Source: Escherichia phage IME08
Reading direction: 5' to 3' (one strand)
Length of the DNA: 64,000 bases
Sequence record: NC_014260.1
Positions 15,232 to 43,138 of the stretch are shown here, piece after piece. Every line of letters begins with the position of its first letter. Position 1 is the stretch's first letter. The position numbers and the translations under genes are program-made. The notes under the pieces are model-generated. The model saw nothing but the letters and a program-made list of their open reading frames with translations. It was not told the DNA's origin and made no database searches.

Positions 15232-15888
15232 TTATTTCCTATTAAAGTTTTCTATCATTCGTCGATAACAAATATCAGGATATCCATTATCAACAGCTAT
15301 TTTATTAAATTTGGTGCGTTTAGGTTTATTATTGTAAACCCATAATTCATAAAGCATATCGTAACTATTCCATATTTCTCCGCGCCTAGGATTTGGCAAA
15401 CCATATCGAGGGGAATCTTTACCACTAAATCTTCCTTTTCTAGCTTTACTCATATTGGCCTTAGCTTCATCAGATATAATTTTATCTTTATGAGCCAGGC
15501 GCATTTTGGCTTTAGTTTCTTCAGGAGTTTTCATCCCTCTAATCCAGGAAGGTTTACCAAACATCGGGTTATTTTTTCCTGAAAATGCTTTAGCGTTATT
15601 TTCTCTTAACGTGGCTATAGTTCTACTAGTTAATTTAACTCCTTTATTATATCTCATTAAATTAACAGCATAATGTAGACCTTTTACTTCGGGATATATT
15701 TTTGTTAAAAGCCTATGAGCTACAAAGTGTTCTCTTGGCAATAAAGCAACTAAATTGTTTTTATCATCAGAACCATTCATACATCTAGGTATAACATGGT
15801 GTTCTTCCGTATAATATGATAAAGACCGCTTAGAACCTCTTAATTTTCCTTTAGATATTAATTCCTGGTATATTTTTTCGTAATTCAT
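15232..15888 (-). CDS. HNH homing endonuclease with NUMOD-like repeats
   Basis: 218 aa; HNH motif EEHHVIPRCMNGSDDKNNLVALLPREHFVAHR; repeated NPMFGK/KDSPRYG modules; AT-rich ORF inserted between gene 56 and gene 61. Confidence 0.8.
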   Translation of the reverse strand: MNYEKIYQELISKGKLRGSKRSLSYYTEEHHVIPRCMNGSDDKNNLVALLPREHFVAHRLLTKIYPEVKGLHYAVNLMRYNKGVKLTSRTIATLRENNAKAFSGKNNPMFGKPSWIRGMKTPEETKAKMRLAHKDKIISDEAKANMSKARKGRFSGKDSPRYGLPNPRRGEIWNSYDMLYELWVYNNKPKRTKFNKIAVDNGYPDICYRRMIENFNRK

Positions 15889-22549: not shown

Positions 22550-22681
22550 TTATTTTATTCCTCGGTTGATAGCCTTATCGACTATCTTCCGGACTTCTCG
22601 TTTCTCGAGCCAGCATAATAATAACAAGGCTCCGAAAGAGAATAATAACAAAATTATAAAAAGCAATAAAGGACCTAGCAT
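22550..22681 (-). CDS. small single-pass membrane peptide
   Basis: 43 aa hand-translated (MLGPLLLFIILLLFSFGALLLLCWLEKRE...); GAGGA SD 6 nt upstream; ATG overlaps stop of the 297-aa ORF. Confidence 0.45.
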   Translation of the reverse strand: MLGPLLLFIILLLFSFGALLLLCWLEKREVRKIVDKAINRGIK

Positions 22682-23568
22682 ACTACGTCCTCATAACTTG
22701 GCATTTCGTGCTCAGAATGGATATGGGCACCGAAATAAATGAATTCAGCTAGACCAGGATGGAATACTAAACCAGGATTCTCATGATAAATGATATGAGG
22801 TCTTGATTTCAGAATCTGGTAATATTCAACCTTACTCGGTTTGAATTTAATAATCTCTACATCAGGACGATAGTCTTCGCGCTTAAATGAATCATTCGGG
22901 TCGGTGATATAAAGACGAGCACCTTCAGCTGCAGCTTGGTCTACAACTCTTTCGAATTGATAGCATTTATCTGAGATACGGAACGGATGGAAAATACCAT
23001 CAATTTTAATAGGCGCTAGACCTTCAGAGTAACGCTCAATTACTGCAGGATTAATTACCTTTTGGTCTACAAAAATCTTATCAGAGGATGCACCTCGTGA
23101 CACCAGGACGTCTTTCTGGCATTGATTCAGGACTGTAGTATAAATCGAACGTTCAACTGAAGACACGTCGATATCAATGAACTCATCAATATAATAACGA
23201 GGAACTTCAGGGTCCATTGTAATGTTAAAGTTGAATTGTACAGTCTGAGCACCATCATAACCTGTGATATCGGTTACTAATCCTGAGCAGTCATAGTATT
23301 CGATTAACGAATCAACGACGAACTCATTTTCAGACCAAAAATGTTTACGAGTTTCATAAGCATTTTCTTTATACCAAAGCGGCACAAAATTCAGTTCAGG
23401 AAATAATTCAATGCATTCTTTGATATCGCTCGAATTTCTAGGATAAGCCAGATAATCACCTGGGCGAGCACGGTTTAAATGGAGTTGAAAATTACCGTCC
23501 TTAAGGACGGCATATTCACCTGTTTCGTAACTACGCATACTGAAAATAGGAACGATAAACAGACTCAT
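22675..23568 (-). CDS. unknown protein occupying the beta-glucosyltransferase slot; candidate DNA-modifying transferase
   Basis: 297 aa between uvsX and gene 42 where T4 has beta-gt; no resemblance to recalled T4 beta-gt; function inferred from synteny only. Confidence 0.6.
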   Translation of the reverse strand: MSLFIVPIFSMRSYETGEYAVLKDGNFQLHLNRARPGDYLAYPRNSSDIKECIELFPELNFVPLWYKENAYETRKHFWSENEFVVDSLIEYYDCSGLVTDITGYDGAQTVQFNFNITMDPEVPRYYIDEFIDIDVSSVERSIYTTVLNQCQKDVLVSRGASSDKIFVDQKVINPAVIERYSEGLAPIKIDGIFHPFRISDKCYQFERVVDQAAAEGARLYITDPNDSFKREDYRPDVEIIKFKPSKVEYYQILKSRPHIIYHENPGLVFHPGLAEFIYFGAHIHSEHEMPSYEDVVC

Positions 23569-24263
23569 TTCAGGAATCCTCGAACGTAGTCAAAATCGCG
23601 TTCAAATACGTGTGCACTAACCATAGTATGGGAATATGTACCCAGACCAACACCACACTGTTCGGCAATAAAGGCCATCAGTTTACCTTGCAGATAGAAA
23701 TCCAGCTGCATAACGATAGCACAGTTCTGTGAACGCATATGAGTGTGTGCATACAGACGTCCATCACGAATATAATATGTTACCGAATCGGTGCATGGAT
23801 ATTCTAGGGACTCGTCAGAATCAAGGAGTGCTTGGTCTTGTTCTTGGAGAATTTGGAATACTACACGTCGTGAGTTTTCTTTTTCTTTAAGCTCTTTAAG
23901 TAAAGCTGGAAGTTGTGCGACAATGCGAGGGCCATAAAAGGTATTGAAATTCGCAGGCAATACGTCACTTTTCGGCTTATCAATGAACTTAGCAACATTA
24001 GGGTATTCCTTAAATGCTTCGGCGGCATCAGTACCACCGGAAATCATAAACTTCCAGAAAGATTCGGCATAATCATAGTTGATACGATTAATACGAGGGT
24101 CTGTGAATTTATAGGTGCTTGCATCCAGTACTTCTACCGAAGCAGAACCAATTTCATAACAACGGCCGATACGAGAATCAACTGCAAACTGTGGAGCTTC
24201 CAGGATTTCTTCGTTCATTTGCTTAAACGCGTTTTCAAAACTAACAGCGGTAATGTGTTTCAT
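23565..24263 (-). CDS. 42: dCMP hydroxymethylase-like (thymidylate synthase fold)
   Basis: 232 aa; catalytic-Cys region PCTDSVTYYIRDGRLYAHTHMRSQNCAIVMQLDFY parallels T4 gp42 MCTNTVQYLIRDKK..NMRSNDVVFGF. Confidence 0.75.
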   Translation of the reverse strand: MKHITAVSFENAFKQMNEEILEAPQFAVDSRIGRCYEIGSASVEVLDASTYKFTDPRINRINYDYAESFWKFMISGGTDAAEAFKEYPNVAKFIDKPKSDVLPANFNTFYGPRIVAQLPALLKELKEKENSRRVVFQILQEQDQALLDSDESLEYPCTDSVTYYIRDGRLYAHTHMRSQNCAIVMQLDFYLQGKLMAFIAEQCGVGLGTYSHTMVSAHVFERDFDYVRGFLK

Positions 24264-24796
24264 TTATTCACCTTATTTTCAATATATTCATTCAGACGTT
24301 TTAATTCTACCATATCGACGTTAAGCAAGTTATTATGGCCGTCGTGATTTAAGATTTTAAACACGTTTTCAAAACATGTTTCATATTGCCTGATAGTTAG
24401 GTTGAACTCATCTTTGGTTAATTTAATAAGGTCGTCTTCAAAGTCTTTATCCAGTGGATTACGGGTTAAAATAACCTCAATAATATTGAATTCAGATTTA
24501 AACCCTTTCCAATCTTCCAGTTCTACATAAGGGTCCATTTCACCACGAAGGAATCCAGAGTAAACAATATTACTAGGATATCCACGGTCTAAGATGTAGA
24601 CAAAATTAGGGTCTAAAAACTTATACAACGTCTCGACTAAAGCCTTGTCATTATCGGTCCCTAATGAAATGCATTTGCCATTAATCTTTTTAGGGAAATC
24701 AATAAGACGATATTTCTTATCAGATAAAAGTGATTCAATTAAAGTAGACTTCCCGGAATTATCCGGGCCGTCGATAACAATTATTTTTGGTTTCAC
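24260..24796 (-). CDS. P-loop kinase (dNMP/thymidylate-kinase-like or polynucleotide-kinase-like)
   Basis: 178 aa; Walker A IVIDGPDNSGKST at N-terminus. Confidence 0.7.
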   Translation of the reverse strand: MKPKIIVIDGPDNSGKSTLIESLLSDKKYRLIDFPKKINGKCISLGTDNDKALVETLYKFLDPNFVYILDRGYPSNIVYSGFLRGEMDPYVELEDWKGFKSEFNIIEVILTRNPLDKDFEDDLIKLTKDEFNLTIRQYETCFENVFKILNHDGHNNLLNVDMVELKRLNEYIENKVNK

Positions 24797-25191
24797 GGAT
24801 GATATGCCTTATAGGTTTCAAGAGTTCCTTCACGAACCATTTCTTTAAAGTGGTCAGGACGGATTGCTCGGTCATCGATGATAAAAGTATAACTCGGCTT
24901 ATGTGTAAGCAGATTATGATATTTCAATCCAATCTTTTCAAGGTTCTTAACCAATGCAGGAACTACTTCAACCAAGATTCGACCAGGGCCGCATGAAGTC
25001 ATACCACGAGCAGTGAACAATGTAATCTCGTACCCTTCATCATAAAGCTTATTAATCATAGACACCATTTCGGTGTCCGGTTTAAAGTTTTCGTAATCAC
25101 GGTCATGGTTCCAAATCGTGATTGTGTTATCGATGTCAAAACATAAATGAGGCTTATTTTCTACTCGATGTGACATTAAATTTTCTTCCAT
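24793..25191 (-). CDS. HAD-superfamily phosphatase
   Basis: 132 aa; motif I CFDIDNTIT (DxDxT) near N-terminus. Confidence 0.7.
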   Translation of the reverse strand: MEENLMSHRVENKPHLCFDIDNTITIWNHDRDYENFKPDTEMVSMINKLYDEGYEITLFTARGMTSCGPGRILVEVVPALVKNLEKIGLKYHNLLTHKPSYTFIIDDRAIRPDHFKEMVREGTLETYKAYHP

Positions 25192-26849
25192 TGTTTGTGG
25201 AGTTCAGTAGAACCTGTAGGTTTATATTTTACACCAGTTTCTTGGTCAAGCAAAACCCACTTATCAGGACAACGAGTGATAATTTGAGCCGTGATAGGGT
25301 CGCGAACTTCATCAACGAATTCACCTGTGATAAGCTTACGCTTACGAGGATGCCGCTTCAGCAGCACACTCAGTTGATATAAACCATTGTAATAAGCACC
25401 CAGAGCTTTCAGAGGGTTATTTTTAAAGTAACCTGCCAATGCCATCCAGATAACAGCAATCCAGAGCTTGTGCTTAAATGTACACATTGGAATATCATCT
25501 AATGGCATAACCTTTTCAATATCAACGAATACACGAGTTCCGTTACGAGTTAAGCCACCCCATAGAGGGTCGGAGTTAAATTTGTCATAACCATCGATAG
25601 AATAAAGCACCTTAGCTTCGTCATAAATCGCAGGGCCTTTAGAACTATTACCAAAATAACCACGTGGGTCGATGATTTTAATATCACCTTCGTCCGACAA
25701 CATAATATTACTGTAGTGCGGGTCACCATGAATAAGTTGGTACGGTTCTTTATGTTCAGACAGAATTTCTAAGGCGTGACGAAGAAGTTTTTCTGGGTCA
25801 CCTACCTTAAAGTCATTGACATGGGTAATGCCCTGTGGAGCAAAGCCTTCAATCAATCCAGCAATAGAAGCATTACGAATAAGGACCTTGTCCAATACTT
25901 CTTTCTTAACATCAGAATACCATTGCTCATCAGATGGATTATCGATAGTCCCACCGAATGAACGCAATGCACTAATGACCTTATAAACCATGAGGACTTT
26001 AGTTTCTTTAGACATAAACCGGTAGGCATCTGCCATAGTACGACCAAAGATACGTTCCATTTTAATGAATTCACCTGGAGCAAAGTCTACAATGCTCGGA
26101 ACGAATTCAGAATCAATAGAATTGTACCAATTGATTTCTTTAGATTGGATTTCTTTACCTAATTCGTTGGTAGGTACTTTAATAGCCAGATTCTCAGTGA
26201 ACTCTAATTTATTAAATTCACGGTTAATTTCAGAATCTTCATGAGCCTTAGCCAGTTTCAGTTTGTCACCGACATCAACTACAAAGTCCAGCTTACGTTC
26301 AGTCAAATGGACCATTGAATCCAGATTGTCAGCAAGGTCTTCGCCGTAATTAGAACCGTTAAAACCTGTCCAATTGGCTACTTGATACAAACCAACTACA
26401 CCGCCACCGGTACCAATTTCACGCAGGTACGGTTCTTCAAATGTAAAACGACAGTCGGTCCCATAGGTATAACAGTAGTCGTTATCCCACTCAACTTTAT
26501 GGCCCTCAGGAATGATGTCACACCAGTTAAACAGGACATTGTGCCCGATGATATCTTCAGCAATGCAATCGATAGCATGAGCTGAGCCATTGGCAACATC
26601 TACGTTACGAATAGTGAATTTAGGCTTATCGCTGGTAATCATGTTAATGGATTTAATATAACCCTTAACGAGGTCATTAAATTTGCTATGAATTACCAAA
26701 ATGATTTCATCTGATTGGTTACTATACAAATCATACAAATGTTTTAGTACTGTATGTTGTTTGTAGTTAACCAATACCTTCGGGATTTCGTTAGTAATTG
26801 GATACAACCGTGAGCCAAGACCCGCGCCTAAAATAACAACCTTTTTCAT
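25176..26849 (-). CDS. bifunctional nucleotidyltransferase / APH-choline-kinase-like kinase
   Basis: N-terminal ILGAGLGSRL sugar-phosphate nucleotidyltransferase signature; C-terminal LIHGDPHYSNIM...IIDPRGY kinase motifs; start set at MKKVVILGAG with GAGGAA SD. Confidence 0.8.
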   Translation of the reverse strand: MKKVVILGAGLGSRLYPITNEIPKVLVNYKQHTVLKHLYDLYSNQSDEIILVIHSKFNDLVKGYIKSINMITSDKPKFTIRNVDVANGSAHAIDCIAEDIIGHNVLFNWCDIIPEGHKVEWDNDYCYTYGTDCRFTFEEPYLREIGTGGGVVGLYQVANWTGFNGSNYGEDLADNLDSMVHLTERKLDFVVDVGDKLKLAKAHEDSEINREFNKLEFTENLAIKVPTNELGKEIQSKEINWYNSIDSEFVPSIVDFAPGEFIKMERIFGRTMADAYRFMSKETKVLMVYKVISALRSFGGTIDNPSDEQWYSDVKKEVLDKVLIRNASIAGLIEGFAPQGITHVNDFKVGDPEKLLRHALEILSEHKEPYQLIHGDPHYSNIMLSDEGDIKIIDPRGYFGNSSKGPAIYDEAKVLYSIDGYDKFNSDPLWGGLTRNGTRVFVDIEKVMPLDDIPMCTFKHKLWIAVIWMALAGYFKNNPLKALGAYYNGLYQLSVLLKRHPRKRKLITGEFVDEVRDPITAQIITRCPDKWVLLDQETGVKYKPTGSTELHKQWKKI

Positions 26850-26909
26850 TATCTGTTCCTCAAGTGAATGTAGGTACATTATACACTATTTTTAATAAAT
26901 TGATATTGC

Positions 26910-27410
26910 TTAAATCTTATCTTTACCGATTTCAATGCACTGTTCTATTGCTGCTGGCACTTTGGTCTTGAGCTTATTGATTTGTTTCTTATAATCACGG
27001 GCCTTATCGAAGCTCTCGGTTTCGAGCATTTCGTAATAACGAGCCTCGTGGATGGAAATCTGTAGATTGATATGGTTTACGCACATCGCATACAGTTTCT
27101 GCTTTTTGTACAAATCATCTTGGCGCTTCATTTCTGCCTGGTGTTTGGCTAGTACCGCTTCACGCTTAGACTCTTGTTCACGTTGGAATTCAATTTCTCG
27201 TTGAGCATATTTTGCACAGTTATTACCGCATTGATTATTAGCTCGGGTATACACAAGTCCAGAACCTGCACGGAATTTCATTTCGCCATCGAATTGTTTC
27301 TGTTCAGCTGCGATACGAGCTTTACCGACTTCATCAGCCGAAACTGCATCACCATATTGGACCGCGCAACCTGATAGGAGCATACTCATTGCGATAATTA
27401 ACTTTTTCAT
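26910..27410 (-). CDS. putative lipoprotein
   Basis: 166 aa; signal peptide with lipobox LSGC; coiled-coil-like charged body. Confidence 0.6.
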   Translation of the reverse strand: MKKLIIAMSMLLSGCAVQYGDAVSADEVGKARIAAEQKQFDGEMKFRAGSGLVYTRANNQCGNNCAKYAQREIEFQREQESKREAVLAKHQAEMKRQDDLYKKQKLYAMCVNHINLQISIHEARYYEMLETESFDKARDYKKQINKLKTKVPAAIEQCIEIGKDKI

Positions 27411-27419
27411 TGGATTCCC

Positions 27420-27656
27420 TTACTGTTTAACAATGATGATTTGTGCATTTGATTTACGTTCAGCGACGATAGCCCAGATTAAAGCCACTACCCAACCAAT
27501 CATCGTCCAACCTAACAGGAGATTAAGGAAGAAAATTCCTACATTACTACGAGTGCCTCGCAGAAGAGCCAAAATCCATGGTAAAAAGTAACCGATGAAC
27601 ATAATAGCCAGAGAACCAAATCCTAAAACACCAGCACTAACGATTAAAGCTTCCAT
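27420..27656 (-). CDS. imm: immunity to superinfection membrane protein
   Basis: internal start MEALIVSAGVLGFGSLAIMFIGYFLPWILALLRG matches recalled T4 Imm; two TM segments. Confidence 0.8.
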   Translation of the reverse strand: MEALIVSAGVLGFGSLAIMFIGYFLPWILALLRGTRSNVGIFFLNLLLGWTMIGWVVALIWAIVAERKSNAQIIIVKQ

Positions 27657-34077: not shown

Positions 34078-35756
34078 TCCATCACCGTGAATCGTCCAAC
34101 TTTCTTCATTTGAAGATGTTGGCCATAAGCTTGTGGGTCATGGTCTCGGTGAGAGATAATAAACACGTTCGTATCCTCAAGGCTATTCAAGATGGTTGCA
34201 ATGGTCTTAACGCCTTCAGCGTCAGTAGCACTGTCAAATACCTCATCAAGAATTAACGTGCTGATATTAACACCAGATACCTTTGAAGCAATATCACGCC
34301 ATGTAAAAAGTAGTGCGATATCAATACGTGCTTTCTCACCCTGTGAAAATGAAGCATAACTAAAGTCTTCACGTCCACGTGATTTAATCGTCTCATTGAA
34401 CTCTTCATCTAGTGTAAAGACGTAGTCGGCTTCCATAATCTTCAAATAAGAATTTATCTGCTTATTAAAGATAGGAATGTATTTCTTAATAATGGAGCCT
34501 TTAATACCCGTGTCCTTCAACATTTCTGTCAGAATTCCACGATGATATTTTTCCATTACCAAGGACGATTTGGTAGAGACGATTTTATCAAGCTCTGCTT
34601 GAAGCGCGGCAATCTCTTCGGCATTACTTACGAACTCAGCAGCTGCTTGGTCGATTAATACTTTAACTTTTTTAGCTTTCTCTACAGCAGTAATGGCTTG
34701 TTGCTTATGAGTAGCTATCTGAGATTTAATAGCCAGCGCTTTATTACGTTGTTCGGTTACTTGGTCCTTAATGAGCTTGAGTTCTTGGTACTGCTCATTA
34801 ATCTTATCCAAAGATTTTTGAAGTTCAAAGTTCTTATCCTTAATTTTAGTAAGGATATTTCCATGCTCTTCCAATCCTTGCATACATGTAGGACAACTAC
34901 CACCGGTTTCGTATAATTTCACAACCTTAGTAAAGGTTGCCATATCATTCTTGATTGCAAATCCTTTATTGCTCAGGTCACTCATAGAGTTGCTAGGGTC
35001 ATCATCGACGATGACATTGAGTAATTCATCAGTCAGTTTTTCTATATTGCCCTTCGCAGTCCTGGCTTCTTTAACCAGCTCATCGTACATTAACTGTAGA
35101 CGTGCTGCGTTCTCGCCGGATAATTTACGCTGACGTTCTTCGTTGTCATTATAAATTTTAATTTGCTGGGTAATAGAATCCTGTTTAACGTCGATTACCT
35201 GGATTTGGCTATTAGTCTCACGAATCAAAGATTTGTTCAACTTGTCCATATCCGCTAATACAGAAACCTCTAACAGGTCTTCCACAAGCTTTCGGCGCGC
35301 AGGGGTCGACAAACCCATGAAAGGGGTATACCCTGCTGTACCAAGTACGACAATCTGTTTGAAACTGGCATATGACATTCCGATAAGCTGTTCAAATTCT
35401 GCTTGGAAGTCTTTACTGCTGGCAGATTCATCAAGACGTTCACCGCCACAAGTGATTTCAAAAATATTGGGTTTTTGCCCGCGCTTGATATAGTATTCTT
35501 TGCCATCATATTCCATCCACAGTTCGACCAAAAGGTCTTTCTTATTACTTGAGTTAATCAACTGCCCTTTCTTAACATCACGAAAAGGCTTACCAAACAG
35601 AGCAAATGTAACGGCTTCAAGGAACGTAGATTTACCAGCGCCATTTTTACCGGTGACTAAGGTCTTTTGGACCTTGTCAAGTTGGATTGTAATAGGTTGC
35701 TGGCCTACCGACATAATATTTTTATACGTTACTTTCTTTAACTTAAACGTTTTCAT
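34074..35756 (-). CDS. 46: recombination endonuclease subunit (SbcC/Rad50-like)
   Basis: 560 aa; N-terminal Walker A GKNGAGKST, long coiled-coil, C-terminal signature/Walker B LILDEVFD. Confidence 0.95.
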   Translation of the reverse strand: MKTFKLKKVTYKNIMSVGQQPITIQLDKVQKTLVTGKNGAGKSTFLEAVTFALFGKPFRDVKKGQLINSSNKKDLLVELWMEYDGKEYYIKRGQKPNIFEITCGGERLDESASSKDFQAEFEQLIGMSYASFKQIVVLGTAGYTPFMGLSTPARRKLVEDLLEVSVLADMDKLNKSLIRETNSQIQVIDVKQDSITQQIKIYNDNEERQRKLSGENAARLQLMYDELVKEARTAKGNIEKLTDELLNVIVDDDPSNSMSDLSNKGFAIKNDMATFTKVVKLYETGGSCPTCMQGLEEHGNILTKIKDKNFELQKSLDKINEQYQELKLIKDQVTEQRNKALAIKSQIATHKQQAITAVEKAKKVKVLIDQAAAEFVSNAEEIAALQAELDKIVSTKSSLVMEKYHRGILTEMLKDTGIKGSIIKKYIPIFNKQINSYLKIMEADYVFTLDEEFNETIKSRGREDFSYASFSQGEKARIDIALLFTWRDIASKVSGVNISTLILDEVFDSATDAEGVKTIATILNSLEDTNVFIISHRDHDPQAYGQHLQMKKVGRFTVME

Positions 35757-35977: not shown

Positions 35978-36215
35978 CCTTGATGCATGATTCAGCCATA
36001 TGAATTAATGTTTCTGGAGTATCATCTACCATTACATTAAAGCTAAATTCCACAGCCCAATCAGTGAAAACATAAACCTTTACGACATCTTCGCTTTCAC
36101 CGTCAGTACAGCCTTCGAACCAGAATTTAATGATTGAAGGATTGCCATCGTCGTCAATAACCATACAATCATGTTTAAAGCATAATCCTGATTTTTTGAA
36201 TTCATCTAAAGTCAT
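35952..36215 (-). CDS. hypothetical protein
   Basis: 87 aa ORF. Confidence 0.45.
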   Translation of the reverse strand: MTLDEFKKSGLCFKHDCMVIDDDGNPSIIKFWFEGCTDGESEDVVKVYVFTDWAVEFSFNVMVDDTPETLIHMAESCIKDAYNDENV

Positions 36216-37234
36216 CGTGTAACCTCATTATAAAGTTGTGCAGCCATAGTCTTAAGGGCTTTAACATCGTCTTCAGTGTGGCCATCAGGAAGGGCGTCGA
36301 TATAATCATACATCATATCCAAGAGGGACTTAACTTCATCTTCCTCTTCAGAATCATCGATATCAACACTGTTATCTACCTTAGACACGATACGTAAAGA
36401 ATGGACGACCTTTTCAAGCTCTGATTCGAACTTAGTAAGGCCATCATCGATTTTATCGACTATAACACGAACTGCAATATTTGTAAAATCTTTGTAATCG
36501 ATAGTCGCGTTAGGATAATGAATCTTACGGTGCCAACAGGTTTCATTGATGACGAAATCCATTGTATGGGTTTCTGTATCGAAAATCCAGAAGCCGCGAG
36601 GGTCGTTTTCATCACCTGCAGTCAGGGTCCATGGCGTACCAATATACTTAACGTTTGCTGCATCAGAAATAGTGTGGAAGTGGCCTGACCAAACTTGCTT
36701 ATACCTCTTAAGGAAATCAGGTTCTAAACCATGAGATTTCATTCCTTTATAGAAATAGAAACCATTTAATTCCCAGTGACCTATACAGAAATCTGCTGTA
36801 GTATTTTTGATATGGTCCATGATATCAGTAGTGTTTTCTTCACACATCCATGGAATCAAATCAATTTCGGTACCATCAAAGTTAACCGTAGTAGGTTTCT
36901 CAATAACCTTGATATGGTCGTATTTACCCAGAACTTCAGAAGCAGCGTTCGGAGTCAAGGTATTTTTGTAGTGTGCATCATGGTTGCCGACGACAGTATA
37001 CATGGTAATGCCGTTGGTTTTAAGCAAATCTGAAATATGTCTAGCAAATTCCATACACTTATGAGTAATTGCTTTACGAACATCAAAAATATCACCATAC
37101 TGAATCCAGACAGTGATACCATTTGCTTTAGAATAATTGATGGCATCTTTGATGCCTGCCAATTGGATGTTTTGCACCCAAGGGTCGTCGTTCTTCACTC
37201 CAAGGTGCCAGTCACCCGTATTAAGAATTTTCAT
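36212..37234 (-). CDS. 47: recombination endonuclease subunit (Mre11/SbcD-like phosphoesterase)
   Basis: start set at MKILNTGDWHLG (phosphoesterase motif I); GNHD motif present. Confidence 0.9.
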   Translation of the reverse strand: MKILNTGDWHLGVKNDDPWVQNIQLAGIKDAINYSKANGITVWIQYGDIFDVRKAITHKCMEFARHISDLLKTNGITMYTVVGNHDAHYKNTLTPNAASEVLGKYDHIKVIEKPTTVNFDGTEIDLIPWMCEENTTDIMDHIKNTTADFCIGHWELNGFYFYKGMKSHGLEPDFLKRYKQVWSGHFHTISDAANVKYIGTPWTLTAGDENDPRGFWIFDTETHTMDFVINETCWHRKIHYPNATIDYKDFTNIAVRVIVDKIDDGLTKFESELEKVVHSLRIVSKVDNSVDIDDSEEEDEVKSLLDMMYDYIDALPDGHTEDDVKALKTMAAQLYNEVTR

Positions 37235-37838
37235 TACGTATTCGTTCCCACATTTTGGAGGCTGCTTTAGAAGCAGAGCCAGGAAGTTTACCTTTGACCC
37301 ACCCATCAGGAATATTAGATGGGTTAATCAGTTTATGTTCTATTCCGTTATTATACCACTTCCTGCCCTTATTATGACTAGATGCTTTATAATTAGGTGA
37401 ACGACCTTCTACATATCCTTCGGGGACTGTAGGTGCAAAGGTTTGTTCTAATGTAACAGGATTATAGGAATGAATATACCCTTTAGCATTATGAGAGCCG
37501 TAAAGAGGGTGTTGCTCTTTAGGTAGCGAAAGCCCAAAGAATCCTTTAGGAGCTGCGACAGCCCTATTAAAGAATAGAGGATTTTGGGCTGCATCGGTTC
37601 TTAACTGGTACATTCTTTCAGCTTCTAAAGCCTCTTCTCTTGTAGGGTGTTCACTTACAATACATGAGTCAAATAATTCTGGATGCTCTAAAAGCTCATT
37701 TTTATAGATTTCTTTATATGCTTTAGAAAGGACACTCCCGTGATATCCTTTTAAATGCTTCTCTAAAGTGGTAGACCCTATATAAAACGGTGGAAGCTTA
37801 GTCCCGGAATATATTGTCAGGTATGTGATGTATTTCAT
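37221..37838 (-). CDS. GIY-YIG homing endonuclease (Seg-like)
   Basis: 205 aa; N-terminal YLTIYSG...FYIGST GIY-YIG motif; C-terminal NUMOD-like GRKWYNNG. Confidence 0.7.
   Translation of the reverse strand: MKYITYLTIYSGTKLPPFYIGSTTLEKHLKGYHGSVLSKAYKEIYKNELLEHPELFDSCIVSEHPTREEALEAERMYQLRTDAAQNPLFFNRAVAAPKGFFGLSLPKEQHPLYGSHNAKGYIHSYNPVTLEQTFAPTVPEGYVEGRSPNYKASSHNKGRKWYNNGIEHKLINPSNIPDGWVKGKLPGSASKAASKMWERIRNENS
37221..37838 (-). mobile_element. seg-like homing endonuclease gene where T4 carries alpha-gt
   Basis: located between gene 47 and gene 55. Confidence 0.55.
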
Positions 37839-37865
37839 AGATTTATTTTATCATCCATTCAGAAA

Positions 37866-37890
37866 GCAAAAAAGGAGCCTAAGCTCCTTT
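37866..37890 (-). terminator. GGAGC-UUAG-GCUCC hairpin + U6
   Basis: minus strand GGAGCttagGCTCCttttttgc. Confidence 0.6.
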
Positions 37891-38110
37891 ACCAACTAAT
37901 ACACCATACAGAGGTTCGTGATTAGACCTGAACTTGATAGGCTTATATGTAATAGTACCTTCATTTTCTGCTTTAATACGAGCGGCTTCAAATTTAAGCA
38001 ACATCTCATTTTTGTCAGATTTAATCTTATCAAAATCCATCGAATTCGTCATTCATACAACCTCTTAAACTTTTTCGTATTCGTCTTTCATTAGCCACCT
38101 GTCCATGTTA

Positions 38111-38311
38111 TCATCGTTGCCACCATTTCTTAAGTTGGTGTGAATCCACCCAAACCTTGGCTACAGGCTCAATCCGAAAAATTTCATCGGAATATTGACC
38201 CATCATTTTGTATTCGGTTTCGGACTGCTTAATACAGATATTACCGTATGAGCGAAGTCTAAAGGCGGCTCCAATAAGAAGCCGTTTAAAGGGTTTATTT
38301 ACTAGAGCCAT
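38111..38311 (-). CDS. hypothetical protein
   Basis: 66 aa ORF. Confidence 0.35.
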   Translation of the reverse strand: MALVNKPFKRLLIGAAFRLRSYGNICIKQSETEYKMMGQYSDEIFRIEPVAKVWVDSHQLKKWWQR

Positions 38312-38606
38312 TGACGATTTCCCAAATTTGTTTGCGGGTAGATTCCCACATCAATTGAACAAGTTCATCAGTAACAGGTTGACGGTAAATACCACGTAAT
38401 TTAATTAAAGCGTACTTATATGCTTCAAAGTTGTTTTCAAGTACAGCGCCTTGGGCATGGAGATTTAAACGACGGATTTCACGAGCATTCTTCTTAAGAA
38501 TCTTAGCCGCTTGAGAATTAGCTTCTTTAATATTGTGCTCTTCTAAACGTTGCTGGGCTTCTTCAATTTGCTCATCAGTCAATTGAGAAATGTCATGGCT
38601 TTGCAT
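38295..38606 (-). CDS. hypothetical protein
   Basis: 103 aa ORF. Confidence 0.4.
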   Translation of the reverse strand: MQSHDISQLTDEQIEEAQQRLEEHNIKEANSQAAKILKKNAREIRRLNLHAQGAVLENNFEAYKYALIKLRGIYRQPVTDELVQLMWESTRKQIWEIVNGSSK

Positions 38607-38607
38607 A

Positions 38608-38838
38608 TTAATCCTTTGGAGTCAATTCAATAGTGAAGTAGAAATTAGCGTTCTCAACATGATAACGATAATCTACGTTATTGTCAGGAGAAGTGAATTC
38701 AATATTCCTGACGTTAAGTGGGTCAATATCAATAGGAAGGCCTTTAACATCCCGTAATATCAATTTAATAAAATAAGGGAGTGCTTCGAAGTCTTCCATT
38801 CCATCTAAAAGTGGAGTGATATTAATCTGATGTTCCAT
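38608..38838 (-). CDS. hypothetical protein
   Basis: internal Met start chosen to limit overlap with gene 55. Confidence 0.4.
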
Positions 38839-39379
38839 ATAAAAAATCCAGTTCACCGACTTTAGGTTCGGCACTCTTATCAGACCCTGGTGCTTTAGTT
38901 AAAGAGGTTTCATACTGAGTCATTTTGTCGTAGATATCTTGGATAAAGGTTTCATCTGCGATACCTACCATGTCGTCATCATTACTGTCATAGACGTTAT
39001 GGACGAAGTAGCTATATTTCTTTGCCATTTCTTTACGTTCTTTTTTGATACGCTGAACGAAGGCATTAAAACAAGCCATAGTGATATATGCATGTGGGTT
39101 GTCGTATTTTGTTTCGTCGAAGTTGTGAAGACCTTTAATCGAAGCTTCGATTCCATCAGCAATCATTTCTTGCTTCCAAGATTGGGTATATCCTGAGAAG
39201 TTGAAACGTTTACTTAGTCCTTCAGCAATGAGCATAATAGCCAAGCCAATAACGTCGTTCTGGCGAACTATTTTATTAGGATCAGTATTTTCTCTGAGCT
39301 CTGTTTTCCATTGGGTAATAGCTTTCAGAAGCTCCTTATTATTTACATAGTTATTTTTAGTCAGTTTAATTTCGGTCAT
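38822..39379 (-). CDS. 55: late-transcription sigma factor
   Basis: 185 aa; same length as T4 gp55; position after gene 47. Confidence 0.85.
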
Positions 39380-39445
39380 TGTTACCTCAGATAACTCAAA
39401 TCATAGGTCTATTATATCATGGTATTTGAAGACCCTTTTAAAGCA

Positions 39446-39709
39446 TCAACGGAGTAAGCAATAAGCCTGAAATACTGTTTCAAGGATTTTTTTGAACTCT
39501 TCAAAGGAAGGAGCTCCTTCAAACCCTTGGCTTTGAATGTAAAGACAGAATTGTTGGTAAAGGACCAAATATTCTGATTGGTTATATTTGGAAATATGGG
39601 ACTTCCATACTTCAGAAGTCTCTCCACAAATAAACTCAACATTCATATAACTATCTATTAAGAAAATCCCTAGTCCTTCGTAGGCGAGGGTAGTGGATAC
39701 AGGGGTCAT
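39446..39709 (-). CDS. hypothetical protein
   Basis: 87 aa ORF; preferred over overlapping 39412..39642 frame. Confidence 0.4.
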   Translation of the reverse strand: MTPVSTTLAYEGLGIFLIDSYMNVEFICGETSEVWKSHISKYNQSEYLVLYQQFCLYIQSQGFEGAPSFEEFKKILETVFQAYCLLR

Positions 39710-39972
39710 TGTAGGAATCGAGCTCCTTCCAGTGCGTCATCAAGATTATCAAACTCATCGACGTAATCAACACCGCCAACTTCATCCTTCGCATAAAGCC
39801 AGTACTGTTTAAATTCGTATTCGATGATAAAGTGGTCACCCTCAATCTGGAGAGTCCCATCACCATTAAATTGAACTGCATAACCTGTAAAGCGGACATC
39901 ATTCAAGAGTTCTTCTTTCATAGCAATCATTTCCAAGTTTTTATCGTAATTAGAGAGTTTTATTTTAATCAT
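39706..39972 (-). CDS. hypothetical protein
   Basis: 88 aa ORF with 4-nt stop/start overlaps on both sides. Confidence 0.45.
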   Translation of the reverse strand: MIKIKLSNYDKNLEMIAMKEELLNDVRFTGYAVQFNGDGTLQIEGDHFIIEYEFKQYWLYAKDEVGGVDYVDEFDNLDDALEGARFLQ

Positions 39973-41736: not shown

Positions 41737-42054
41737 CTAATCTTCAATTAAATCTCGGTCATAACCAAGTTCAATCAAAAGTGACTTAAAGGCAGGAATA
41801 TTTTCTATTTTCTTATTATCGACAAATATGACAGGATAGCGTATCGCTAAGCTCTTGAAGCCTGCACGTTTGGCCAATGATACTATAAGAGGCTTGTCAT
41901 ATACTGCGCCTGACGGCGTCTGATTAATCACAGGATAGAAAGTATGTGGGATAGAAAGGGAATTTAGGAGCGATAGAACAGCAATGCACCCTGGACAGCG
42001 CATGACTGTCTCAGGGATACCATAAATCTCAATTTTAGTTAACTTTTGGTCCAC
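41737..42054 (-). CDS. glutaredoxin-like protein (CPGC active site), possibly NrdH
   Basis: 105 aa; CxxC motif RCPGCIAV early in sequence. Confidence 0.5.
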   Translation of the reverse strand: MDQKLTKIEIYGIPETVMRCPGCIAVLSLLNSLSIPHTFYPVINQTPSGAVYDKPLIVSLAKRAGFKSLAIRYPVIFVDNKKIENIPAFKSLLIELGYDRDLIED

Positions 42055-42331
42055 AGGAAATAACTCCTTGGTAGTCCCAGGTTTTTAGAACTTCGTCTTC
42101 ATTAGTTCCGTATGGAACGTAAACCTGTACAAGGAACCCGGTATCATCAAAAGAGAAGTAGACAGTAGGTTTAATACCATGAATCTCTGACAGAGCATAG
42201 ATGTCCTTGAGGTCGTCTTCCTTACCTTTAAAGAATTCCGGGTTCAGGTCACAGTCATGGAAGTACCAATCATCACCGAATTTGTCCCAGGCGGTCCAAT
42301 TGGTAGCTACATACTCTTCAAAACGTTTCAT
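42035..42331 (-). CDS. hypothetical protein
   Basis: 98 aa ORF. Confidence 0.45.
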   Translation of the reverse strand: MKRFEEYVATNWTAWDKFGDDWYFHDCDLNPEFFKGKEDDLKDIYALSEIHGIKPTVYFSFDDTGFLVQVYVPYGTNEDEVLKTWDYQGVISCGPKVN

Positions 42332-42543
42332 TCTTTCACCTTCATCATTTTAGAAATAACACCGTGAACAGCCTGGATTCGTTTTTCGAACTCAGACCCT
42401 TCAAGACCTTTTTCAGTACTCAGGGCACCGATAATAACAAACAGTAATCCAAACGGGATGACCAGGATTAAAAGGCATACGATAAACAGGGCAAATGTAA
42501 TATTGGCCAGGATATCGGAAACAGCATTACGAAATTTGTTCAT
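42328..42543 (-). CDS. small membrane protein
   Basis: ATG at 42543 (MNKFRNAVSD...), hydrophobic core; the track's longer form starts at GTG. Confidence 0.45.
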   Translation of the reverse strand: MNKFRNAVSDILANITFALFIVCLLILVIPFGLLFVIIGALSTEKGLEGSEFEKRIQAVHGVISKMMKVKE

Positions 42544-42668
42544 TAAAGAACCCACATGTTAGTTACAACAAATAACCATTGAGCAGGATACTCAACACCC
42601 ATAATACGCACCGCATCGTTCAGAGATTCGGTTAAAGCATAAAATGTGTAGCCATAAAAATTAATCAT
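42543..42668 (-). CDS. small hypothetical protein
   Basis: 41 aa hand-translated; ATGA overlap with gene 49 stop and TAATG overlap with next gene. Confidence 0.35.
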   Translation of the reverse strand: MINFYGYTFYALTESLNDAVRIMGVEYPAQWLFVVTNMWVL

Positions 42669-43138
42669 TTAAGCGATTTCCTCAGTTGTTTTTTAAACGA
42701 ATCGACCATTTGTTTCTTAGTAGCAGATTCATTATAAGTCATTCCATGTGAAAGCATTTCAGCAATCATTTCTTCCTTACCCAACCTGCTGAACTCTTTG
42801 GTTTTATCGGGAACGAAATTAGGATGAATATTGTTTTCAGTATAATCAGCTTTCAGATAGACCAGCAAATTCTCTAACCATTCGAGGTAGTCAACGTTTT
42901 GACCTTTAAGACCAGAACGGTTGAACTTATGCTTCATTTGTCCTTCTGCAGCATTGCACAGGTTACATAGTAAACCACGAACCTTACCGGCTTTTGGCCC
43001 GTTTAACTCGTGGTCGTGGTCAAGGTGGTTACTTTGAACATCAGGGTTTAATTCACGTTTACAAATCAAACACTTACCACATTGTGCATCATAAAGTTTT
43101 TGTTTTTCTTCTTTGTATAATTTGCCGGTCAACAACAT
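42665..43138 (-). CDS. 49: endonuclease VII (Holliday junction resolvase)
   Basis: 157 aa; MLLTGKLYKEEKQK...HLDHDHELNGPKAGKVRGLLCNLCNAAEG nearly identical to recalled T4 gp49. Confidence 0.95.
   Translation of the reverse strand: MLLTGKLYKEEKQKLYDAQCGKCLICKRELNPDVQSNHLDHDHELNGPKAGKVRGLLCNLCNAAEGQMKHKFNRSGLKGQNVDYLEWLENLLVYLKADYTENNIHPNFVPDKTKEFSRLGKEEMIAEMLSHGMTYNESATKKQMVDSFKKQLRKSLK

Follow-up and report, generated by a model that had tools for sequence, protein, structure and literature searches.

Escherichia phage IME08 carries, in the 64,000-nucleotide (nt) stretch of its sequence analyzed here (NC_014260.1, hereafter the window), a free-standing gene for a putative Seg-type GIY-YIG homing endonuclease of 205 amino acids (aa). 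The gene lies at 37221-37838 between gene 47 and gene 55, and the original prediction of an endonuclease open reading frame (ORF) between these two genes was borne out. All genes of the 36212-39379 region are encoded by the minus strand. The transcription order, derived from the ORF listing, from Pfam and PHROG scans and from the annotations of phages QL01, JS98 and T4, is 55, a-gt.5, a-gt.4, a-gt.3, a-gt.2, terminator, 205-aa endonuclease, 47, 46.2, 46.1 and 46. The upstream flank is gene 55 (38822-39379), encoding the late sigma factor (phrog_234, expect value (E) 8.9e-69, and the relatives' annotations). The downstream flank, gene 47 (36212-37234), encodes an SbcD/Mre11-like recombination nuclease subunit, as indicated by Pfam Metallophos, phrog_100 (6e-135) and the QL01 annotation. 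The true start of gene 47 is the ATG at 37234 (MKILNTGDWH), which falls within the last codons of the endonuclease ORF, so that the two genes overlap by 14 nt (cgtaATGAAAATTCTTAA). In megablast searches using 2.5 kilobases (kb) and 24 kb around the locus, the best matches are T4-type phages of the genus Dhakavirus (JS98-like), to which the window belongs, QL01 being the closest with 96-98% identity; the same searches of the phage collection returned no record identical to the window.

On the evidence of its sequence and its predicted structure, the 205-aa protein is a Seg-type GIY-YIG endonuclease. It matches phrog_10820 (E 1.5e-92), and a search of the NCBIfam library returned nothing for it. 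We collected 249 homologues, 120 of which were aligned. The family profile matched T4 SegG in hhalign with 96.4% probability and an E of 1.4e-9 over 95 columns of the nuclease domain, and tblastn with T4 SegG gave 46.5% identity over 43 aa. BLAST detected no similarity of the protein to SegA, the SegA and MobB queries matching instead another gene of the window at 15232-15888; the Seg-type Y-x-G-S motif is common to the 205-aa protein and SegA. The AlphaFold2 model has a predicted local distance difference test score of 86.7, exceeding 95 over residues 1-90, and a beta-beta-alpha-alpha-beta-alpha topology, which is the GIY-YIG alpha/beta fold with a three-stranded sheet. The N-terminal nuclease domain spans about residues 1-95. 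The C-terminal part consists of two beta-hairpin repeats of the type ...YN..(T/G).....P.G(Y/W)..G(R/K) and a terminal helix.

The signature motifs of the nuclease domain are T5-Y6-L7 and Y19-I20-G21, with Y6, Y10, Y19 and G21 found in 119 of the 120 aligned homologues. E74 and N91, the equivalents of the metal-binding Glu and the conserved Asn, are invariant (120/120). Together with these residues, Y32, G34, S38, E48, F56, R67 and the I of Y19-I-G21 are invariant or nearly so. Position 27, in the helix formed by residues 25-29, is occupied by K in 90, by R in 17 and by N in 11 homologues. R67 is nearly invariant (110/120) but lies in another helix. The basic residue 27 in helix 1 may be equivalent to the catalytic Arg of I-TevI. 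The idea that the catalytic Arg is simply missing was softened, as K or R stands at position 27 in 107 of the 120 homologues and the homologue of phage G4507 has R. The protein is 100% identical to its counterpart in phage IME540. Comparison with the allele of phage 005 revealed 5 synonymous and 0 non-synonymous changes, and the ratio of non-synonymous to synonymous substitution rates (dN/dS) against the G4507 homologue is about 0.2. Both values indicate purifying selection.

"HNH endonuclease" is the description given to phrog_10820 and to the protein in several RefSeq records. An enzyme of the HNH family is nevertheless scarcely credible here, as Pfam gave no HNH match, no HNH/beta-beta-alpha-metal motif was found, the family profile matches SegG, and GIY-like and YIG motifs are present. 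Judged by sequence and model, the HNH label is wrong. A paralogue with 47% identity over 112 aa in the nuclease domain lies between genes 19 and 20 of QL01 (QL01 locus 39307-39888), where it, too, bears the label "HNH endonuclease"; the QL01 genome thus contains the nuclease module at a second site.

The interval between genes 47 and 55 is where T4 encodes its alpha-glucosyltransferase. The order in T4 is 47, 47.1, a-gt, mobB, a-gt.2-a-gt.5 and 55. In JS98 and WG01 the order is 47, 47.1, a-gt.2-a-gt.5 and 55, with neither alpha-gt nor an endonuclease. Tequatrovirus G4507 has the order 55, a-gt.5-a-gt.2, terminator, alpha-gt, 47.1, a 207-aa homologue of the window protein (61% identical) and 47. 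Homology between the window and WG01 breaks off at the start codon of gene 47 (37234) and sets in again at 37842. In between, WG01 has 157 base pairs (bp) with gene 47.1 and the window a 607-bp endonuclease segment, and the endonuclease of the window thus stands where WG01 and JS98 have gene 47.1.

The original prediction regarded the endonuclease as occupying the place of alpha-gt. The T4 interval indeed contains alpha-gt and the window interval an endonuclease and no alpha-gt, and one could suppose that the endonuclease invaded, displaced alpha-gt and thereby marked the event that abolished the glucosylation of hydroxymethylcytosine (hmC). We consider this very improbable. JS98 and WG01 are without alpha-gt although they are also without the endonuclease, and the place of the endonuclease is filled in them by gene 47.1 alone. 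In G4507, alpha-gt and the homologous endonuclease stand side by side. Moreover, the base-synthesis enzyme of the window is of the RB69 5-hydroxycytosine (5hoC) type, which places the change of modification system at another locus. The absence of both genes from JS98 and WG01 and the presence of both in G4507 therefore make the absence of alpha-gt independent of the endonuclease. As far as these sequences tell, alpha-gt is absent from every Dhakavirus examined and its absence is unrelated to the endonuclease. The absence of glucosyltransferase genes from JS98-type phages was published in 2010, and JS98 was described as having neither homing endonuclease genes nor glucosyltransferase genes (PMC2993671). 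The absence of alpha-gt and beta-gt is an ancestral genus trait of JS98-type phages that is already published.

A tblastn search of the window and of QL01 33-170 kb at E<=1 detected no homologue of the T4 alpha- or beta-glucosyltransferase; QL01 1-33 kb lay outside this search, its equivalent being covered by the window. The search beyond the window thus used a relative as a stand-in for the phage's own genome. To this extent the predicted loss of canonical glucosylation holds; the endonuclease and the small ORFs do not serve as its indicator. Among the large ORFs of the window that lack an assignment, Pfam and PHROG scans returned no further glycosyltransferase beyond the one described next.

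An RB69-type arabinosylation cluster, comprising a 5-hydroxy-dCMP synthase, a GT-B transferase and UDP-arabinose genes by homology, sits on the minus strand between uvsX and gene 43. The "beta-gt slot" holds a 297-aa transferase (22675-23568) with a GT-B fold and 65-69% identity to RB69 gp46:47, the proposed first arabinosyltransferase; Pfam and NCBIfam gave nothing for it. The adjacent thymidylate-synthase homologue (23565-24263; Pfam Thymidylat_synt, tblastn) is 78.4% identical to RB69 gp48 (p048) and 24.5% identical to T4 gp42. It is not a T4-type dCMP hydroxymethylase and is predicted to be a 5-hydroxy-dCMP synthase, the activity shown for RB69 gp48 (PMC13326640). Next come a nucleotide kinase (24260-24796), a HAD phosphatase (24793-25191; NCBIfam capsule-biosynthesis phosphatase) and a bifunctional nucleotidyltransferase/kinase (25176-26879; Pfam NTP_transferase and APH). 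These three genes match RB69 gp45, gp51 and gp52:53, with 37-63% identity in tblastn using the RB69 p045/p051/p052/p053 set. Past the cluster are a 166-aa ORF of unknown function (26910-27410), which completes the 22675-27410 region, and imm (27423-27656).

Arabosyl-5-hydroxycytosine is present in RB69 DNA, and the Dhakaviruses are listed among the phages with a syntenic cluster (PMC13326640). By prediction, the pathway of the window substitutes 5-hydroxycytosine for cytosine and adds arabinose via a single GT-B transferase. Compared with the pathway of RB69 and DLP3 (PMC13326640), the window cluster has no counterparts of gp3 (the second arabinosyltransferase), gp50 or gp55 (arabinose-5-phosphate isomerase), and tblastn against the window and QL01 33-170 kb detected no homologue of the three. 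For this reason mono-arabinosylation is the likely product, and reliance on the arabinose-5-phosphate isomerase of the host is predicted.

Immediately upstream of the endonuclease gene lies a module composed of an intrinsic terminator and a promoter-like motif. The terminator hairpin (37871-37890, minus strand) was recognized by folding and by comparison with T4 and G4507. It consists of AAAGGAGC-UUAG-GCUCCUUU followed by a U-rich tail (37890->37871) and forms the 3' end of a-gt.2, whose stop codon is the UAG inside the loop. The 65 nt around the hairpin fold with -19 kcal/mol, a z of -3.5 relative to shuffled sequences. In T4 this hairpin recurs with UUCG as its loop, and a terminator is annotated at the same place in G4507. 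The UUAG-loop terminator of the original prediction thus exists; it had been placed after the endonuclease and stands upstream of it in the direction of transcription. The motif resembling a T4 middle promoter (37845-37869, minus strand) was found by pattern search and supported by conservation. It comprises a MotA box (TTGCTTTC), an 11-nt spacer and TAAAAT, and it ends 6 nt before the endonuclease ATG. The window contains 7 matches to the MotA-like pattern where 1.95 are expected, one of the others being located before uvsX and one before the endonuclease gene at 15232-15888. The motif is kept in QL01, WG01, JS98, Bp7, 005 and T4 and may act as a middle promoter. A transcript initiated from it would start at about the endonuclease ATG, which suggests that the endonuclease would be poorly translated from the transcript serving genes 47 and 46.

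The terminator and promoter-like module is kept from T4 to the Dhakaviruses, the homology between T4 and the window running through the hairpin and TAAAATAAA before it ends. In T4 the module precedes mobB, located between alpha-gt and a-gt.2. MobB thus has the same position relative to the module as the endonuclease of the window, but it belongs to the HNH nuclease family and is unrelated to the GIY-YIG protein. Different endonuclease families therefore use one landing spot. The only MobB-like gene of the window is the one at 15232-15888 (minus strand). It encodes a second free-standing endonuclease of 218 aa with an HNH N-terminus 41.6% identical to T4 MobB, a NUMOD3 motif and a SegA-like C-terminus, and its MotA-like motif lies directly upstream (15919->15895).

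We see the 205-aa endonuclease gene as a selfish nuclease gene that invaded recently and is polymorphic. QL01, IME540, NC-G, 005 and others have it, amounting to about 11 of about 47 related records, and JS98 and WG01 are without it. In phage 005 and its relatives the allele encodes 251 aa. The sequence of Bp7 is exactly that expected from deleting the 251-aa allele between the TGAAATACAT direct repeat, and the resulting scar (locus 2487-2500, compared with 005 locus 1733-2488) separates the promoter-like motif from gene 47 by 14 bp. Five genera, namely Dhakavirus, Tequatrovirus (G4507), Biquartavirus (Aeromonas L9-6), Winklervirus (Serratia LC53) and Marfavirus (Klebsiella EI), have full-length homologues immediately upstream of gene 47. 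Many of the homologues end in ...NEN(N/S), a tail specified by the stretch that overlaps the conserved start of gene 47. We also considered that the 205-aa ORF might be a truncated copy of the 251-aa form of 005 and rejected this; many homologues from other genera share the ...MWERIRNEN(N/S) end that overlaps the gene 47 start, and the 205-aa ORF is therefore the full-length form.

Throughout the nuclease domain the 205-aa allele shares 97-99% identity with the 251-aa allele, and from 37344 down the two can no longer be aligned, the homology to 005 beginning at 37345. The DNA-binding tail and the 5' segment of gene 47 (36900-37344) are therefore inherited as one block. In identity profiles against WG01, Bp7 and 005, this mosaic block (minus strand) comprises the last 41 or so endonuclease codons and some 112 codons from the start of gene 47. 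Bp7 and 005 are 63-68% identical to the window in the mosaic stretch and at least 94% identical deeper in gene 47. In the final 400 nt ahead of the endonuclease, identity to WG01 falls from 96 to 92, 88 and 77%, and on the a-gt.2 side it is 91-96%. The first 345 nt of gene 47 contain 48 differences against WG01 and 120-122 against Bp7 and 005, compared with 27-37 in the other 678 nt. Between alleles, the start region of the gene (about the first 275-335 nt) is 14-35% divergent and the rest 4-5%. Seg endonucleases cut the neighbouring gene and drive co-conversion, a pattern described for T4 SegF and SegG (PMC2988022). We propose the block 36900-37344 as the putative co-conversion tract and target/immunity region. 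The mosaic is compatible with homing and is not proof of it.

These observations suggest how the gene may spread. During co-infection with an endonuclease-free relative, the enzyme would cut the DNA of the relative within the 5' third of gene 47 or close to it. Repair off the endonuclease-carrying genome would then copy the endonuclease gene and the adjoining gene 47 segment into the cut genome. By analogy with T4 SegF and SegG, the process would amount to intronless homing with marker exclusion. The nuclease could instead be chiefly a weapon between phages, or a defence or anti-defence device directed at foreign DNA generally. This is distinctly unlikely, as the family is strictly tied to one site in five genera and its modular C-terminal DNA-binding tail co-varies with the neighbouring gene 47, which argues for sequence-specific action at the locus. 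Taken as a whole, the explanation that a Seg-type GIY-YIG homing endonuclease linked to gene 47 resides here, that the absence of alpha-gt is unrelated to it and that an RB69-type pathway is encoded instead of glucosylation appears probable to us.

A number of points weigh against this explanation. Pfam GIY-YIG (PF01541) scores the protein at 16.9 bits (E 0.0078), under the gathering cut-off of 22.6 bits. Sequence searches of the PDB with the 205-aa protein did not retrieve the I-TevI catalytic domain, and the match of the family profile to I-TevI in hhalign is weak (32.7%). A Lys takes the place of the canonical catalytic Arg and is located 8 rather than 10 residues past the YIG tyrosine. The proposed target in gene 47 is suggested by position and mosaicism, and recombination hot spots without homing could also yield a mosaic gene 47 end. 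The Dhakavirus-type chemistry given above is a gene-based prediction, and our literature search turned up no experiment in which the DNA modification of a Dhakavirus was measured.

Some of these points would also fit a decaying or domesticated relic, inactive as a nuclease and kept for the embedded translation start of gene 47 and possibly for its promoter context. The Lys at the R27-like position, the sub-threshold Pfam score, the 14-nt overlap, the lack of an obvious Shine-Dalgarno sequence and the proximity of the promoter-like -10 element to the endonuclease ATG all agree with such a relic, and embedded signals are known to favour the keeping of T4 endonuclease genes (PMC2988022). We nevertheless regard it as unlikely, since length and residues are conserved across the 120 homologues, with E74, N91 and the tyrosines invariant, and since the low dN/dS and the lack of non-synonymous changes against the 005 allele speak for a maintained protein. 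Furthermore, Bp7 lost the endonuclease cleanly and keeps gene 47, which shows that the endonuclease is not needed for gene 47 expression.

Among known systems, T4 SegG, encoded between genes 32 and 59, is the best characterized relative of the homing endonuclease proposed here. Like the window protein, it is free-standing and about 200 aa long. It is encoded directly upstream of an essential recombination/replication gene, cuts the 5' part of that gene and co-converts flanking markers (PMC2988022). The window endonuclease differs from SegG in its site, which is gene 47 and not gene 32, in its unrelated C-terminal region and in its low identity outside the nuclease core. Unlike SegG, the window family is known from sequence and models, and our literature search found no paper naming or characterizing a Seg endonuclease at gene 47.

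Y6, Y19, E74 and N91 of the window protein lie at nearly the positions of the Tyr, the Tyr-Ile-Gly, the Glu and the Asn in I-TevI (1ln0), which are Y6, Y17, E75 and N90. The linker of the window protein is similar to the NUMOD3 segment in the DNA-binding domain of I-TevI (1i3j, E 0.006). The window protein differs from I-TevI in that it is not intron-encoded, has no RWKRH segment but Y-x-G-S instead, and has Lys27 where Arg is expected.

The small genes between the terminator and gene 55 are conserved T4 genes of unknown function, all on the minus strand. The a-gt.2 orthologue (37879-38052, 57 aa, DUF5486) has a Pfam E of 1.1e-19 and 56.6% identity to T4 a-gt.2, and the a-gt.3 orthologue (38111-38311, 66 aa) matches phrog_1648 (3e-29) with 46% identity to its T4 counterpart. 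They are followed by the orthologues of a-gt.4 (38295-38606, 103 aa, DUF2654; Pfam 4e-23, 41% identity to T4) and a-gt.5 (38608-38838, 76 aa, DUF5491; Pfam 2.7e-14), the latter annotated as a 231-nt gene in QL01. In tblastn, the four ORFs show 41-57% identity to T4 a-gt.2-a-gt.5 (E 1e-14 to 1e-20). The original prediction counted three small ORFs; such ORFs are present, their number is four, and all are orthologues of T4 a-gt.2-a-gt.5. Its end coordinate, 38874, came from a GTG-extended a-gt.5 running 53 nt into gene 55, and has to be replaced by the ATG at 38838; the alignment of T4 a-gt.5 to the window spans 38838-38626, and this ATG is also the start annotated in QL01. Nor are the small ORFs a sign of the loss of glucosylation, as a-gt.2-a-gt.5 are conserved in phages with and without alpha-gt. 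Within 38300-38900 (a-gt.4 and a-gt.5), JS98 is 62-83% identical to the window, and QL01, WG01, Bp7 and 005 are 98-100% identical; the small a-gt.x genes are therefore also swapped as cassettes within the genus.

Further differences were observed around the locus. The 36000-36200 segment (46.2 and the end of 46.1) has 69-87% identity to five Dhakavirus relatives with flanks of at least 96%, a divergence specific to the window. Just downstream of the neighbour of gene 55, 39500-39600 has about 59% identity to the compared Dhakaviruses, with 96-100% on its near side, and is a small replaced segment. Within gene 46, 35300-35400 is 97% identical to T4 and G4507, compared with 70-82% for the surrounding gene; this patch is either a very conserved stretch or a small exchange between genera. 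T4 has nrdG, mobC and nrdD between the counterparts of an NrdH-like ORF with a CPGC motif (41737-42054) and a gene 49 homologue (42665-43138). In the window, 41737-43138 contains no nrdG, no mobC and no nrdD-sized ORF (none exceeds 355 aa in 42000-64000), and the QL01 annotation is consistent with this.

Several public labels for genes of this region found no support in family searches. These are "HNH endonuclease" for the GIY-YIG protein, "SegE" for the endonuclease, "hemolysin" and "holin" for the a-gt.4 and a-gt.5 homologues of 005, and "prohead core protein protease" for the a-gt.2 homologue of Klebsiella EI.

The features at this locus exist, and the case is an ordinary one, a homing endonuclease of an uncharacterized and widespread family tied to gene 47. 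The result mainly tidies annotation. The RefSeq and PHROG label "HNH endonuclease" needs correcting to GIY-YIG, SegG-like, and the absence of alpha-gt has to be kept apart from the presence of the endonuclease, each being independent of the other. The chemistry of DNA modification probably differs from that first assumed, as the modification genes of the window are of the RB69 type, for arabinosylation of 5-hydroxycytosine, with one transferase. This bears on the predicted sensitivity of therapy-candidate phages to restriction and type IV systems. A modest lead is provided by the uncharacterized Seg family itself, which is tied to gene 47 across five genera with different DNA modifications. 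A tentative idea, which we rate as possible and on balance improbable, is that this lineage acts on at least two hypermodified DNAs of different chemistry, glucosyl-hmC in Tequatrovirus and the predicted arabinosyl-5-hydroxycytosine in Dhakavirus and Winklervirus, and that the swappable tail and the 5' segment of gene 47 form a self-immune specificity cassette moving together. If true, such a cassette would be a natural system for the retargeting of homing endonucleases and for the reading of heavily glycosylated DNA.

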